From NCBI GenBank assembly GCA_030693145.1, contig JAUYBI010000041.1, positions 10,228 to 74,227 on the forward strand: DNA of 64,000 nucleotides. Reading direction: 5' to 3'. Below are positions 45,001-57,000 of this stretch, piece by piece. Under the pieces are notes generated by a model. The model had not been told where the DNA came from and searched no databases. It saw only the letters and a list, made by a program, of their open reading frames with translations. Within the stretch, counting starts at the first letter, position 1; each line of letters begins with the position of its first letter. Position numbers and translations under genes: made by a program. Origin of the DNA: Candidatus Omnitrophota bacterium. Lineage in GTDB: Bacteria; Omnitrophota; Gorgyraeia; Gygaellales; Profunditerraquicolaceae.

Positions 45001-48000
45001 GAGAAGGCCGGATGATGAAAAAATGTTTAAGTTTAGGCATAGACGTTCCTGTTGGGCAGCAATTTGCAGAGTGGGCATTTATTGTGATAGACGCGGGATT
45101 TGTTAATCAGTTAAATAATCAGGATACCGCAGGCATTCTTAAGGAAGGATTTGAAAGGTATAGTAAATATATTCTTGGAAAAAATGTTCCCGAAATAAAC
45201 TTAGGCGAATATGCGGATTTTGTAAATAAAGTAATTATTGCCCGCGAAAGCCCACTTGAACAGACTAGGCATGGCGGCCAAGAGCTAGATATACCTGAAG
45301 AAAATTATAAGTTAATGGAGTTATTGAGCCCATATATTGATTTATTGATGGAAAGCGAGTCGTTGAACAAAATAATTACGCAAGCTCAGCAGAATGTTAT
45401 TAATGAAAAAGGCATTAGCAAGGTAGATTTAAGGTCAGAATTTACGGAGAAAACTACTCAAGGATTATTGAATAATAATGAAGGCGAATTTTCGGTATTT
45501 AATGAGGGAAAAGAAGGTGTTAGATATATAGGTGAAGATGGCGGAAGAAGTCAAAAATTAGGGAGCTTTGCCGGAAGAAATATAGGTTTTTTTTATGGAA
45601 ACTTATTAAAATCTTTTCCAAAGCACCTATTATTATTTAAGAAGTTTAAGGAATTGTTCCGCGGATATGCCCGCATCTTTGCCGGAAAGCAAGGGCGGCT
45701 TCATATCGCCAGGCTTAGGACCTTATGGGTTGAATTTGGACGGATATCCTTTGGATTGGGTTCTAAATATAATAGTATTGCTTCTTTAATGTTCTTAATA
45801 GTTTCTTTCTCGGTCTTGCCTTGGCTGTGGCATCCGGGCAATGAAGGAACGCTTGCGGCAATATATCCGTCTTGGCCTTTTTCAAGTACGATTTTGAGTT
45901 TCATTATTATCACCTCCCTAAACAAATATACAGTAGATAATTTACTAAGTCAAGGCGATTTTGGCGTCATCTCGAGAAGATTAACGGACGGCGGCAGGAA
46001 GGAAAAGGCACAAGTTGGAAAAGCAAAAGATGGCGGAGCGCTTGATTTACTTAGTATCCAGAGGCTTACGGAATTAAGAATTACCTGTGCGGATTTTCAG
46101 GCAATTGAAGTTTTAAAAAAGAGAGTTGGCCTTATACCGGAAGGAGCTTCTTTCGGTGTTACCTATAAGAAAGGAATGTATCGGTTGGTAACTTTTAATA
46201 GCCTGTGTTCGCAGGGAGAGATCGCTCTGGGCAGGGCGCAAGGATTTGATGCAAGCGCGGCAGTGGTTAATTTTAGCAAAATCTTAGAAGACAACAATGG
46301 TTTTGGAGGGGATCAAATAAAAAATGTTTTAGTAATAGGCCCGGGAAATACCCTGGCGGAAGTTAAGTTATTATTGTCAAAAAATCCGAATTTAGAAAAA
46401 GTGTCGGTTGTTGAATGGCTTAGGGGCAATATTACCGGTTTGTTAGATGAATTAGGCGCGATGCCAAAAGAGGAGAGGGCAAGCATTGAGGTTTATTGCG
46501 TTGATCCTAAAAATACGCCTTTTAACGAAAATAGCTTTGGCTTAGTTTGTTCTAATAAAAACGGCGGTACGAAAGTATTTGATGGCGGGCGGGAGGTTTA
46601 CGGAAAAGAAAGCATCAAAGGTAGTATGGCGAATTTAATTATCCGTTTATTCAGATTGGTAGCGGATTTTGTTAAGTCATTAAAGGCCGAATCATTAGGA
46701 AAAAGCGCGGTGATTTTAGCGCCGCCTAGCGTAGATCTCAATTCTTTACTTGATATTAATAACTTGTTATTGGCCGCCGTTGGAATTTTAATAGGGTTTA
46801 TCGGCTTTAAACTTTCCTCCTCAGCTAATTCTTACCGTAGGTACAATAATCTTATAATCATCGGGCCGTACAGTTTTTCGAGAAATCCAATATATTTAGG
46901 CGGAAATTTAGAATTCATTGGTTTAAGCATAATTGTGTGGGCTTTTGATCCTTTAGCGGGATTTGTCTTTACGATGATATCTGTAGTGTTTATTTTGTTA
47001 GATCCTTCTATAATTTGGGCTGAAGAAAAAAAACTTAAGTACGAATATGGCGATCAATATAAACAATATTGCAATTCTGTTCCGAGATGGTTTTCTCTCA
47101 AGCTGTTTTTGAAATTTATTGCTTCCAGTAGAGCAAAAGAAGCTTCTGAAGAAATCGTCACAAGCCATACCTCAAAAGACGGCGGCAGGCAGGAAAAGGC
47201 TCAAGGCGCAAAGTATCCTTCGCCAACGTTGGATTCCGCAAAAATGATATGGGATACTCTTGCAAGGTTTATTCCTCGGGCTGGTTGGTTGAGGCCGCAA
47301 GGAGTTATCCATATCCTTGATGTGGGCTGCGGTAACGCGTTTGGAGCGGCTTCATTTATAAGTTATTTTGGAGGAAAGGAGTTTGGAGAATTTAGCAGTG
47401 ATGTAAAGGTAGTATGTTTAGATATTGAGCCTAGAACTCCGCATAAGTACCTTAAGTTAATCGTAGGCGTGGAAAAAGAAAATGAATTTGCCGGGAATAT
47501 AAAATTTGTGCAGGAAGACGCGAGATATTTGTCTATGCTGAAATATAAACATCAGGATTTGCCCAAGGAATACGAAGTGATAATATTGAGAAATCCCGAT
47601 CCTCGGTTAATCAATAAAACTATTATAAATACAACTATTTTAGAGGAAATAATTGAGCAATGTTTAGCTAACCTTAAAGATAATGGCCTTTTTATCATTA
47701 CAGCCAACAGGGATTTTATAATTAATGCTGCCGAAAAAATAATATCTTTTTACTATAATCCCGAATATCTTAGTTTTTATTTAGATAAAAAAGTAGGCCG
47801 GGAAAACATTCCTTTCTCTGGCGAAATATTTTTTGATTCTTATATTACGATAGCGGTTAAAAGATCCAGAGAGGTAATTAACAATCCTAGGCTAAGAGAA
47901 GAAGGGGCAAATATTGCTGGCGGGAAAATTCAAAATAATGCGGAGAAATTTGACGGCGGCAGGGAACTATTTGGAATGCCGGTAATGGCAAGAATAGTAA

Positions 48001-54000: not shown

Positions 54001-57000
54001 CCGAAGTTTATGCCCAGATATCCAAAGTCAAGGTTGTTAGGCAAACCGGCAGTGAGTCATACCGGCTGGTGGAGCAAGGGTTTTTAAGCATATTCCGTGG
54101 CAGGGCCGGGATTATCGACTGTTCATTTGATGTGGGTGATAAAGGGGATGCCTACACTAGGGCAATACATGAAGATACGAAGTATTTTTTCGTATACAAA
54201 GGCAAGGAGTTAAAAGGGTATATCGGCCTTATGTTTGGCAAAACTCCGGATGCAGAGAAGATATTAGCCATAGATACAATCAACTCTCCTTTTTTAGACG
54301 GGAAAAAGCTTTCAGGCAATCTTTTTAGATTATTGAATGATTTAGCTAAGGAGTCAGGTTGTATCGGTATTGCGCTGCCTGGAGATATGGCTCTTTCTTT
54401 TAATTTTGACAATAAAAAGACAATTTCTGAAATGGATTCCTATAAGAAAGCAAGATCCATATCAGTAGTGCCATTACATCAAGAAAGCTGGGGGTATTTT
54501 ACTGAGATGTTTGGTCGGGATAAATATAACAGCATAGAAGAAGGTGAATTCAGGTGGTTATTAGAAATTGGATCAACTGATCGCTCAGCGCGCCTTGACG
54601 GTGGGGAAATATTTCAGGTTGTTGTTGGCACGCCAAAACTAACCGGACCATTTAAAGATAAAGTCGAGCAGATTGAGGAGTTTTTGAAGAAAAATCCCCA
54701 TGCGGATTTATTAGTTACTAGTGAATTTTCCTTTATTGATCACAGCTCAGGATCAATTTATGCTAATTTCCTTACGCTTAAGCAAGCAGAAGAGGGGCAT
54801 CATACGATTATCGCTGGCGCTATAAGCCTTATCGAAGCAATTCAAGAGATAAAAAAGATAGCTTACTTGTATAAAACTAATATTATTTTAGGAACAATTC
54901 TAGAGAAATTGGAGGATAAAAAAGTTTATTTTAATTCCGCCCTTGTTATTGATAATTTAGGGAATATTACGCATGTGGCAAGAAAACATCGCGATCTCTG
55001 TGGGAGGGATTTTCCTGAGTTAGTTCTTCCTACGGCAAGGCCGATCATTCTTTACAGTCGTGATAGGCGCAAATTCTCAGTTTTTATTGCTATTTGTTGT
55101 GACGCGGATAATGAAGAAATTTATGCAGTGAATAAGGATAAAGAAGCGGATGTATTTGTTGTTACTGCTTTCGGAGGAGATTTGCCGTATAGTTATATGA
55201 GCCAATGGGCATTGAAAGGTGAAATATCCTATATACCGCCTGAAGAGCTTCAATGCTATAGCGAAAATGCGGATTTTTTAACAAAAAAACTAGGTAAAGC
55301 TGAACGTGACTTTAATAAATTTTGGTGGAGAATTAAGTATTTGAAAGAATATAACATTCGCATAACAAGTGGGTTGCTTTTGGGTGTTGATGGGGAAAAT
55401 TATCAGGCAGGGGATAGTTTTCAGGCAGGTTTAATTCCGCTTTCTAATAAAAATATAGAGGTGAAAGATTTTAAAATTAATAATTATGGGTTTAGCGGTA
55501 AAATAAACATAAATGTTCATCAAGACGGCGGGAATGAACAATCTCCGGAGAACAACCCTATGGAGCGTATTTTAGGCGGTTTAGTTAAGGAAGCGGTAAT
55601 GAAAGTAACCTTCCCGGATAACCTGCAGGAGAAATTAAATAAGCTGAATGATGACGAAGGCATTAGCGTTACTCAAGAGGATATTATGCAGGCGATAGCG
55701 CAGCAGCTCGTAGCCAAAATGGTTTTAAAAGTTGAGCCTATACTTAAGGCGGGGATTGAAGATGTAAGCGGCATTAACAGGGCAGGCATTGCTGTTATCG
55801 GATTAACATTAAAGATTAACGGCGGAAAGCGGCAGATTTATATCTTGCGCACTGCTTCTGAATTGTCAAAGGTTGAGGCGCCTAAAGATGCGGGTTGGTT
55901 ATTGGATATTGTAGATTTTATACAGAAGAATGGTTTAGAAAATGCAAGTTTTATCGTGTTATCAAAAGATATGAGAAAGGAATTGATTAAAACAAATAAT
56001 ATGCATAATTGGTTCTTGTATACCTTTTCCAGGGGCCATGCCGGCAATAAGATGTTTCCTGAGATACTTAGATATATTGCCAGGGCTAAAACAAAGCAGG
56101 ATGCCGAACAAGCGGTGCGGAATATAGAAAACAATATTGGCCCTATTTTGAGGATAGCGTGTGAAAACAAAGCCGCATTAAGACAATTATTATTCGAAGA
56201 GGCATCGCGATTGGGCAAAGAGGCAACGGAAAACCCGGGGCCTATTTATAACGCTTACGAATTCATTCAAGAAAGCCTGATAAAAATGTCGATGCCAAAA
56301 GGATATAAAGATATAGAGGATTACTTTAATAGAGTTAAAGAGGTCAAGGATTTGTTTATGGGGTTAGGATTGTTTAGAGGTATCTTAGGGGACGGTTCTT
56401 GCACACTTGACTCTATGTCTGGCAAGGAGCTAGATGGTGGTTGTGAAAATAAGCTTGATGTAAATTTACTGATTAATTATGCCGCCGAGCTTATGGAAGA
56501 GAAAGAAGAAAATCCTCAAATACCTTTATTAAGTGAGGTTAAAAGGCAGTTAAGCCTGCGTAAGTCAAGGTTATTAAAGGCAGAGGAGTGGGTGCAAGAA
56601 AATGTTAAGCTTCGGAATGTAGGCGCGCGTGATATAGACATATATGAAGCTAGGTATGAAATAATGGAGTTGATTTTGAGTCTACCTGCTGAAATAGAAG
56701 TAGAAAGGTTTAAATTTAATTTTGCCATGGATACAAATGGCTGGCCGGGGTTACATATTGATAGGTTTCACAGTAATTCTTGCGGCTTTTATTGCGGCTG
56801 GGCGAATACATCAGAAAAGATAAGTTCCGCTATAAAAGATCAGATAATCAATGATTTAACTTCTTTTGGATTATCTTGGAAGGAATGGGAAGCTTGGGTA
56901 AAGAAAATAGAAGAGGTTTTTACTGTTTCTAACGATGTTCCTTTGAACAAAACGCAACCGTCACGTTTTGAAGGGCGTCTCAATATTGAACGAATTATTT

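Follow-up and report, generated by a model that had tools for sequence, protein, structure and literature searches.

The locus described here is a 64,000-nucleotide stretch of an Omnitrophota genome (Candidatus Omnitrophota bacterium; assembly GCA_030693145.1, contig JAUYBI010000041.1, positions 10,228 to 74,227), which we refer to as the window. The whole window is a single stop-free plus-strand frame (positions 3 to 64000; 21,332 codons) that runs off both window ends, the ends of the gene lying outside. This giant open reading frame (ORF) is a string of complete enzyme modules joined by a recurrent tripeptide, Asp-Gly-Gly (DGG), and five small toxin-antitoxin (TA) operons lie antisense to it between 44.2 and 51.9 kb. 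An earlier note on the same DNA had proposed an integron-type cassette array, embedded in phase inside an ORF and with coding junctions. The in-phase, coding arrangement was borne out; the note did not cover the extension of the ORF over the entire window, the 30 copies of the linker sequence GACGGCGG, or the presence of five TA cassettes rather than two.

We split the giant frame at its DGG sites and scanned each piece against Pfam. The modules comprised B12-binding radical SAM enzymes (rSAM/B12), a DegT aminotransferase, APS kinase, CofD, a four-domain phosphoglucomutase (PGM), 6-phosphogluconate dehydrogenase (6PGD), 6-phosphogluconolactonase (6PGL), two full phosphoglucose isomerases (PGI; E-values of 1e-238 and 1e-229), a two-domain hexokinase, several methyltransferases, a histidine phosphatase (His_Phos), an amidohydrolase, OMP-decarboxylase/HUMPS with SIS, PEMT, HEAT repeats, and CN_hydrolase. 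The family profiles start a few residues after one DGG and finish shortly before the next (e.g., residues 8 to 527 of the 548-residue PGM module and residues 8 to 438 of the 451-residue hexokinase module). Since the profiles fill the DGG-to-DGG pieces in this way, DGG occupies the place that a stop codon, an intergenic spacer, and a start codon hold in an operon.

The linker sequence GACGGCGG, which encodes Asp-Gly-Gly, was present 30 times (33 times when GACGGTGG was counted), always on the plus strand and always in the giant frame, compared with 0.55 copies expected (i.e., an approximately 55-fold excess); no copy was present on the minus strand of the window. At the peptide level, DGG occurred 53 times in the giant frame, compared with 5.8 expected. 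GAC accounted for 36 of the 53 Asp codons at DGG, compared with 23% of the Asp codons overall, and the first two linker codons were nearly invariant (GAC GGC), while GAT and other Gly codons dominate elsewhere and the last base of the third codon varies freely. The residues around the linkers were mildly enriched in polar residues (0.54 versus 0.46 overall). The earlier note had taken GACGGCGG for a cassette-boundary core; given its 30 copies, all at module boundaries, it serves the giant ORF as a general linker between modules and is not a cassette-specific element. A role of the linkers as internal translation restarts was ruled out: there was no start codon at a fixed distance, and the TA genes use GGAGG, not GGCGG.

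Four of the linkers belong to longer junction repeats. The 23-mer CGCTCAGCGCGCCTTGACGGCGG was found at 50319, 50910, 51888, and 54582, all on the plus strand with 0 to 2 mismatches (0.00 expected in 100 shuffles), and a repeat finder recovered the same sites as one 47-nt family (D7), i.e., repeats A (50295 to 50341), B (50886 to 50932), C (51864 to 51910), and D (54558 to 54604). Repeats A and C were 83% identical over 47 nt, while B and D had only the 23-mer in common. All of the junctions read in the plus frame as (R)S(A/T)R(L/F)DGG. The four repeats with a shared 3' element, the upstream extension of the similarity between A and C, and a junction translation ending in RSARLDGG had all been noted from the sequence by eye and withstood formal scanning and alignment. 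The 23-mer did not behave as an ordinary repeat dispersed through genomes, a possibility that had also been raised: only three single matches (in unrelated metagenome-assembled genomes [MAGs] of Actinomycetota, Pirellulales, and Polyangiaceae), which we read as chance, were present in 185,579 species genomes, and none was present in JGI metagenomes. These searches did not yield a close relative of the window.

Toxin-antitoxin operons antisense to the giant frame

All five cassettes lie on the minus strand. Cassette 1, which is TA-like (44294 to 44804; Pfam E-values of 7.8e-22, 1.9e-4, and 5.4e-5), consists of a DUF5647 gene (44294 to 44566) and a DUF7718-like gene (44559 to 44804; probable start at 44711), with a candidate promoter (TTGACA-17-TATACT) at 44746 to 44718. 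It is flanked by a GACGGCGG linker on the left (44211 to 44219) and by a DGG spelled GACGGGGG on the right (44817 to 44825). Cassette 2 (45633 to 45953) contains a 23-codon hicA remnant with an internal deletion (45633 to 45704) and a gene for a HicB-like antitoxin (45701 to 45904), preceded by a Shine-Dalgarno (SD) site and a predicted promoter (TTGACT-17-TATATT) at 45953 to 45925. Its right-hand linker is at 45987 to 45995, and the DGG on its left (45537 to 45545; spelled GATGGCGG) lies inside a duplicated coding piece (repeat family D13). This piece, EFSxFxxGxEGxRYxGEDGG, occurs at 43145 to 43233 and at 45473 to 45561 with 78% identity; the DGG in it forms part of a repeated domain segment, and its spelling, GATGGCGG, differs from that of the linkers.

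Cassette 3 (48231 to 48707; E-values of 1.1e-17 and 8.2e-9) pairs a DUF2283 antitoxin-like gene (48231 to 48440) with a DUF4258 toxin-like pseudogene (48444 to 48671) that carries an in-frame TAA at 48623 to 48621. Its predicted -35 hexamer (TTGACT, 48707 to 48702) is followed by a poor -10 element that the promoter scan did not call, and the flanking linkers are at 47952 to 47960 and at 48738 to 48746 (repeat family D11). Cassette 4 (50361 to 50867; 5.7e-22 and 1.5e-11) is a hicA (50361 to 50594) and hicB (50591 to 50818) pair with an AGGAGG SD site and a predicted promoter (TTGACT-17-TATTTT) at 50867 to 50839; this stretch of about 505 bp is the part that can be aligned between loci. Cassette 5 (51191 to 51839; 6.2e-23 and 4.5e-22) encodes a DUF5615/PIN-like toxin (51191 to 51568) and a DUF433 antitoxin (51558 to 51782), again with an SD site and a predicted promoter (TTGACT-17-TAGACT, 51839 to 51811), and an identical protein is present in another metagenome. 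Between repeat B and cassette 5 lies an 80-codon sense fragment (50934 to 51173) that ends in DGG (51165 to 51173). The previously described order, i.e., A, hicA-hicB, B, short fragment, DGG, DUF5615-DUF433, and C, was thus correct.

The HicAB, DUF5615/DUF433, and DUF4258/DUF2283 families were matched with Pfam E-values of 1e-8 to 1e-23, adjacent genes overlap by 4 nt and 11 nt, and the HicA sequence keeps its GSH motif. On the basis of their domains, gene arrangement, promoters, and SD sites, the five cassettes are predicted to be type II TA operons with predicted toxins, two of the five toxins being inactivated. An exact look-up found no identical protein on record for the HicA of the window; its relatives showed 75 to 91% identity, and three of them came from MAGs named Omnitrophica or Omnitrophota by their sources. 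These relatives and the look-alike loci L006, L008, and L016 (see below) point to an Omnitrophota origin of the window. No further real-looking gene was present among the minus-strand ORFs of the window, the longest of which is 181 amino acids (aa).

The sequence AAGTCAAGG occurs at 45947, 50861, 51833, 54025, and 56562 (5 copies versus 0.39 expected), with a one-mismatch copy (aagtcaaga) at about 48702 to 48710. The earlier note had listed the copies at repeat B, repeat C, and 45947 as a 5' box of the junctions. Those copies are present, and those at 54025 and 56562 are additional; in function, we identify the box as the predicted -35 hexamer (TTGACT) of the TA promoters on the other strand rather than a junction element, the copy at 45947 being that of cassette 2. 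In cassettes 2, 4, and 5, the predicted promoter is followed by a GGAGG-type SD site and then by the start codon. When hicBA cassettes from six loci were aligned, the similarity extended from the hicA stop codon to this box, with none beyond.

Each of the five cassettes lies within one DGG-to-DGG interval, with no DGG inside the cassette (random-placement P of approximately 1.6e-7), and the distance to the nearest DGG was 13 to 88 nt, except for one of 271 nt. The proposal that repeats bracket the TA cassettes therefore held for DGG, which brackets all five within 271 nt; it failed for repeat D, which lies between a HEAT-containing module and CN_hydrolase and has no adjacent TA cassette. On the far side of the cassette 4-cassette 5 block, a truncated methyltransferase-like fragment (50151 to 50294), with motif I of the N-terminal SAM-binding part only and no Pfam match, runs directly into repeat A, and the module before repeat A appears, from its sequence, to be cut off at the cassette block. 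The flanking module region (48747 to 50342) had no homologue among 5.8 billion proteins, hence no empty-site comparison was available.

To assess the open frame across the TA genes, we held the eight TA proteins fixed, redrew their synonymous codons, and counted the stop codons in the giant frame. These shuffles gave 1.6 to 4.6 expected stops per TA gene, and the joint probability of zero stops over the eight genes was approximately 1e-15 with the codon usage of the giant gene and approximately 1e-10 with the TA genes' own usage. Embedded hicBA cassettes (i.e., that of the window and those of related loci L002/L010, L006, L008/L009, L012, and L016) had 0 stops in one antisense frame, whereas their free-living close relatives (L017/L018; 77% HicA identity) had 6 and more distant ones (L014/L015) had 5 to 7; the hicBA of L007, located between separate large ORFs, had 1. 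Both chance and a general property of the hicBA family were thus ruled out as explanations of the stop-free frames, by the shuffles and by the free-living relatives with 5 to 7 stops, respectively. In a tree, the embedded hicBA cassettes formed one clade, with the free-living L017 as its sister. Over the cassette 5 region, a related contig from another metagenome (L001) was likewise open in the giant frame, with 0 stops, compared with 22 and 31 in the other two frames.

Pairwise dN/dS values were 0.06 to 0.16 in the HicA and HicB frames and 0.7 to 1.6 in the giant frame over hicA. Given that dS was often >1 among the compared hicBA cassettes, the open frame has been kept over a long divergence. 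The low dN/dS in the TA frames, together with recoding without stops, indicates that both strands are under selection: purifying selection acts on the TA proteins, whereas on the giant strand it is only freedom from stops that is selected. Over the TA genes, the peptide of the giant frame is thus filler without sequence constraint, in a frame that is kept open. That conserved antisense genes have been recoded so as to lack such stops is evolutionary evidence that ribosomes read through the whole frame.

Related loci and possible recombination at linkers

When the filler peptide of the hicAB antisense frame was searched for exhaustively, 88 cluster representatives were recovered, of which 13 were 1,100 to 6,657 aa long. 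In L006 (an ENA contig of 96 kb on which a gene for 24,373 aa is called), one frame was open over all 20,231 bases fetched, opposite TA genes. DGG occurred 14 times there (1.9 expected) with many codon combinations, and GACGGCGG was present on both sides of the L006 hicBA; GAC was used at 8 of the 14 DGG sites against a background of approximately 22%, a weaker form of the bias in the window. L008 (Omnitrophica GCA_016235185.1) also had one frame open over 20,231 bases, opposite nine TA genes, and each of its cassettes was bracketed by a different recurrent motif, SSP[VI] (28 copies versus 2.2 expected), in which both TCN and AGY serine codons were used. L016 (GCA_043809065.1) was open across all 10.7 kb, opposite TA genes. 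In several other long ORFs, yet another enriched motif (ASPL, ARLA, or RAEV) lay within 5 to 80 residues on both sides of the cassette. Because the motif differs between lineages and uses codons that are not interconvertible, the bracket probably works mainly as a peptide, and this speaks against its serving primarily as a core for DNA recombination.

In L002, L010, L011, and P0054, the hicBA cassette resided in an intein, where it took the position of the endonuclease and had an N-terminal splicing block on one side and a C-terminal block on the other. The segments of the window at 44220 to 51911 had no intein Pfam match and no Hint splicing blocks around the cassettes, whose flanks are DGG linkers. 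The L010 locus (671 to 5014) is a 1,447-aa ORF with two inteins, as is that of L011; in L002, an IS21 element interrupts this same gene. The second intein of L010 holds the antisense hicBA, and the first holds an antisense 65-aa predicted membrane ORF (3923 to 4120; no Pfam match) where a homing endonuclease would be expected. Short repeated insertions (DVVAQFIGQ...) are also present in these inteins.

P0072 (2,393 aa) matched the antisense-hicB peptide in 19 separate stretches and, with 21 to 22 copies of CFRV, SHVC, and GTWV motifs, looks like a tandem array. L012 (1 to 2462; FWPU01046273.1) is the closest DNA relative of the hicAB cassette of the window, with 81% identity. Its read-through frame ends in a stop 115 nt past the -35 box and is taken up again in a different frame, and a second, degenerate antisense-hic footprint (GHPETPTSLNSISTS) lies farther along; a giant ORF in decay could account for this, as could a frameshift or a sequencing error. 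In L007 (8388 to 16160; GCA_022013205.1), a related hicBA is located between separate minus-strand ORFs of 334, 1,852, and >1,256 aa, an arrangement that may be a broken or not-yet-fused version of the giant gene.

Several loci carried signs of recombination in linker-coding DNA. The block of two cassettes in the window (hicAB, B, fragment, and DUF5615-DUF433) is enclosed by A and C, a direct repeat of 47 nt, and the truncation after motif I of the methyltransferase in front of A points in the same direction. The DUF433/DUF5615 cassette of L008 has an approximately 88-nt direct repeat on both flanks, and a third copy of this repeat shares the opposite flank, giving a mosaic as expected from crossovers in linker DNA. 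L001 (a 952-bp contig; ENA ERZ27245777) was 96.7% identical to the window over 51033 to 51856 and unrelated to it left of 51033, i.e., there is an abrupt strain-level breakpoint beside the cassettes, and the linker there is spelled GATGGCGG where the window has GACGGCGG. From these sequence patterns, we infer that cassettes and modules may be gained, lost, and rearranged through homologous or Campbell-type recombination at linkers.

Proposed linker processing, a possible passenger role of the TA operons, and competing explanations

We consider it probable that the window is part of an Omnitrophota-type ("Archaeovorin"-like) giant gene in which DGG linkers join the modules, bracket nested, stop-free antisense TA operons, and serve as processing sites or hinges. 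The gene would be translated as one unit longer than 21,332 codons, producing complete enzymes joined by Asp-Gly-Gly, mostly encoded as GACGGCGG. Each TA operon would be expressed from the opposite strand by its own sigma-70 promoter, SD site, and stop codons and occupies one DGG-to-DGG interval; only the antisense orientation lets a gene keep its stop codon without stopping the host frame. As posttranslational processing sites or hinges, a role in which we place moderate confidence, the linkers would cause the filler between two of them to be released or to be harmless. Such removal may be likened to that of the same cassette's filler by inteins, and the sister cassettes residing in inteins indicate that one way in which this element is accommodated is by removal at the protein level. 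C39 peptidases cleave after Gly-Gly and are reported for this gene class; a GG-specific peptidase of this kind would be the leading candidate for processing DGG, while the non-GG motifs of the other lineages imply other enzymes there.

Cassettes and modules would enter and shuffle by recombination in the linker-coding DNA, leaving direct repeats such as A/C, and B. The TA operons may persist as selfish passengers that also penalize deletions in a repeat-rich giant gene, a role that we suggest with lower confidence. Their accumulation here may stem both from the antisense placement, which spares the host frame while they retain their own stops, and from a penalty that they would impose on deletions between the many repeated linkers; inactivation of two of the five toxins is as expected for decaying selfish passengers.

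In their accessible text, two reports describe Archaeovorin-class giant genes of Omnitrophota with HEAT repeats, methyltransferases, PGI, and PGM/PMM (bioRxiv 10.1101/2023.11.21.568195; PMC10066038), and the available part of the first reports C39 and S8 peptidase domains in these genes, with cleavage points that its authors call unknown (bioRxiv 10.1101/2023.11.21.568195). The window resembles Archaeovorin genes (West-Roberts et al. 2023; Seymour et al. 2023) in its ORF of tens of kilobases, its HEAT, methyltransferase, PGI, and PGM/PMM modules, and its low GC content, and the nearest relatives of its nested HicA are found in Omnitrophica MAGs. Archaeovorin genes also carry an N-terminal C39/S8 peptidase, SecA-like domains, and many transmembrane helices; the window has no peptidase or SecA domain, and the gene ends outside it. 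The searchable text of 10.1101/2023.11.21.568195 and PMC10066038 makes no mention of inter-module linker motifs or of nested genes on the opposite strand (Kizina et al. 2022 [PMC9004380] is outside that scope). A nested, stop-free antisense TA arrangement was not found described in the portion of the literature that is accessible.

Other known systems share parts of this arrangement. Inteins with a homing endonuclease are similar in that a selfish gene is tolerated in a host ORF and the extra peptide is removed or harmless, and sister hicBA copies occupy the endonuclease position (L002, L010, and P0054); they differ in that the cassettes of the window are flanked by DGG linkers without Hint blocks and that the nested genes, instead of coding for endonucleases, form opposite-strand TA operons. 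Host proteins are likewise not destroyed by Rickettsia palindromic elements and similar mobile insertions in frame, which are read through as extra peptide. Those elements are short, noncoding palindromes, whereas each insert in the window is an entire operon of two genes under selection, located on the opposite strand and equipped with a promoter, an SD site, and stop codons. Polyproteins and double-glycine (C39) precursors likewise combine many functional units in one ORF with a short recurrent motif ending in Gly-Gly. Unlike double-glycine precursors, however, the window conserves only DGG and not the extended leader pattern and has no C39 domain, and other giant-ORF lineages use SSP[VI] or ASPL rather than GG sites.

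Several points weigh against the processing-site account. Cleavage at DGG is putative: Pfam revealed no peptidase domain anywhere in the 21,332 codons, and PDB searches of the unannotated modules returned only a third, divergent PGI and no protease. A purely peptide-level signal does not explain the synonymous-site conservation of the first two linker codons. Possible causes of this GAC GGC bias include recent spread or gene conversion of the linker, selection for accurately read codons, avoidance of GGAGG, a spelling resembling an SD site, and an additional nucleic acid signal. No empty-site allele or circular intermediate was seen among the recovered loci, and insertion is inferred, not observed; the cassette flanks cannot be aligned between loci, which, with dS >1, is by itself no proof of independent insertion. 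Analogy is the only ground for the anti-deletion role proposed for the TA operons.

A broader proposal, which we consider possible but less likely than not, is that such genes are "protein-level operons." Ordinary genes would be fused in one translation unit with lineage-specific processing motifs (DGG, SSP[VI], ASPL, and others), the linker DNA would serve as the recombination junction for gain, loss, and shuffling of modules, and a dedicated clade of stop-free antisense TA operons would occupy the inter-linker slots and inteins as an anti-deletion guard. If true, the giant gene would be a translated analogue of an integron array.

Giant genes of >20 kb are common in Omnitrophota, and the locus bears on how they are built, maintained, and converted into working proteins. 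The arrangement makes the processing of giant proteins directly testable by offering candidate sites (DGG here and SSP[VI] or ASPL elsewhere) that can be searched for in existing proteomic data. Moreover, independent genes are here accommodated within another gene in a novel manner, i.e., antisense, between linkers or in inteins, and with both strands selected. This has implications for the evolution of overlapping genes, for TA biology (i.e., operons as possible anti-deletion guards), and for gene calling, given that annotation pipelines give either the giant ORF or the TA genes.

Among the rival explanations, the one that survives best, although we think it unlikely, accepts the nesting as real and regards the linkers only as flexible hinges or duplication scars. 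The protein would then stay uncleaved, with the filler as a spacer, and repeats A to D would stem from local segmental duplication or gene conversion unrelated to the arrival of cassettes. The lack of a protease in the window, the only mildly polar surroundings of the linkers, the duplication of modules together with their linkers elsewhere (e.g., the two PGI copies), and the occurrence of repeat D without a neighboring cassette are all in keeping with this view. It leaves unexplained, however, the tight two-sided bracketing of every cassette, the lineage-specific short peptide motifs with mixed codons, and the life of the same cassette clade in excised inteins.

A second rival makes GACGGCGG primarily a nucleic acid signal, either a Chi-like or otherwise orienting, strand-polar DNA motif or a processing or pausing site of a giant mRNA, with the DGG translation being secondary. 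Such a signal would account for the absolute strand bias (30 plus, 0 minus) at a 55-fold excess, for the synonymous conservation of GAC-GGC while the last base of the third codon is free, and for the GAC enrichment at DGG in L006. We nevertheless judge it very unlikely, given that every copy sits at a module boundary and shares one reading frame, that DGG in L006 is encoded by many codon combinations and L008 has SSP[VI] instead, and that the motif does not fold and has no Rfam match.

On the integron-type reading, first made in the earlier note, the junctions would be attC-like sites at which the TA operons were captured as mobile cassettes, and a gene outside the window would encode the site-specific recombinase. 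Chromosomal (super)integrons are arrays of discrete units with repeated junctions, with several type II TA operons interspersed. The window shares with them its discrete units, repeated junctions, and TA operons, and stabilization against deletion is a plausible shared role. The bracketing of discrete cassettes by a repeated 23- to 47-nt junction, the synonymous-site conservation of GACGGCGG in the window, and the direct repeats and mosaic linker flanks, which are compatible with site-specific as well as Campbell-type integration, would all fit. However, no Phage_integrase domain and no recombinase-like or integrase-sized ORF was present on either strand within the 64 kb. A check of A to D on both strands for hairpins or imperfect palindromes, which the earlier note had suggested, found folding better than in shuffled sequences for A only (z = -2.6; -0.7 to +1.2 for B, C, and D), and no GTTRRRY/RYYYAAC cores were visible at the junction boundaries. 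The hairpin of repeat A was also rejected as a hicA terminator, given that repeat C, which is homologous to A, shows no folding and is located upstream of the promoter of a different operon. There is no IntI, attI, or Pc logic in the window, and the junctions are translated. Integron cassettes are mostly promoterless and cooriented with Pc, whereas those of the window are antisense, have their own predicted promoters, and must stay stop-free in the host frame. With the core at all 30 module boundaries, the L008 bracket defined by amino acids (SSP[VI]), and the 23-mer absent from other species genomes, apart from three chance-like matches, and from JGI metagenomes, we regard this as the least probable of the readings and reject it, except for the analogy of a modular array; the likeness is architectural and possibly functional, not mechanistic.

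Other features of the window

No glycosyltransferase or NUDIX domain was found by Pfam in this 64-kb part of the gene, and the window contained no Rfam family and no tRNA. Exact copies of AAGTCAAGG at 54025 to 54033 and at 56562 to 56570 (plus strand) have no recognizable TA gene alongside; they may match by chance or be what remains of the promoters of cassettes since lost. The two full PGI modules (among 24117 to 25916 and 29493 to 31316) are 75 to 88% identical at the nucleotide level in parts and were duplicated with their linkers, and the third, highly divergent PGI-like module (21816 to 24116 region; PDB matches at 1e-9) is located just upstream of them. The Hexokinase_1 and Hexokinase_2 families are mostly eukaryotic; in the window, a complete two-domain hexokinase (Hexokinase_1 plus Hexokinase_2) forms one DGG-to-DGG module at 34458 to 35810.

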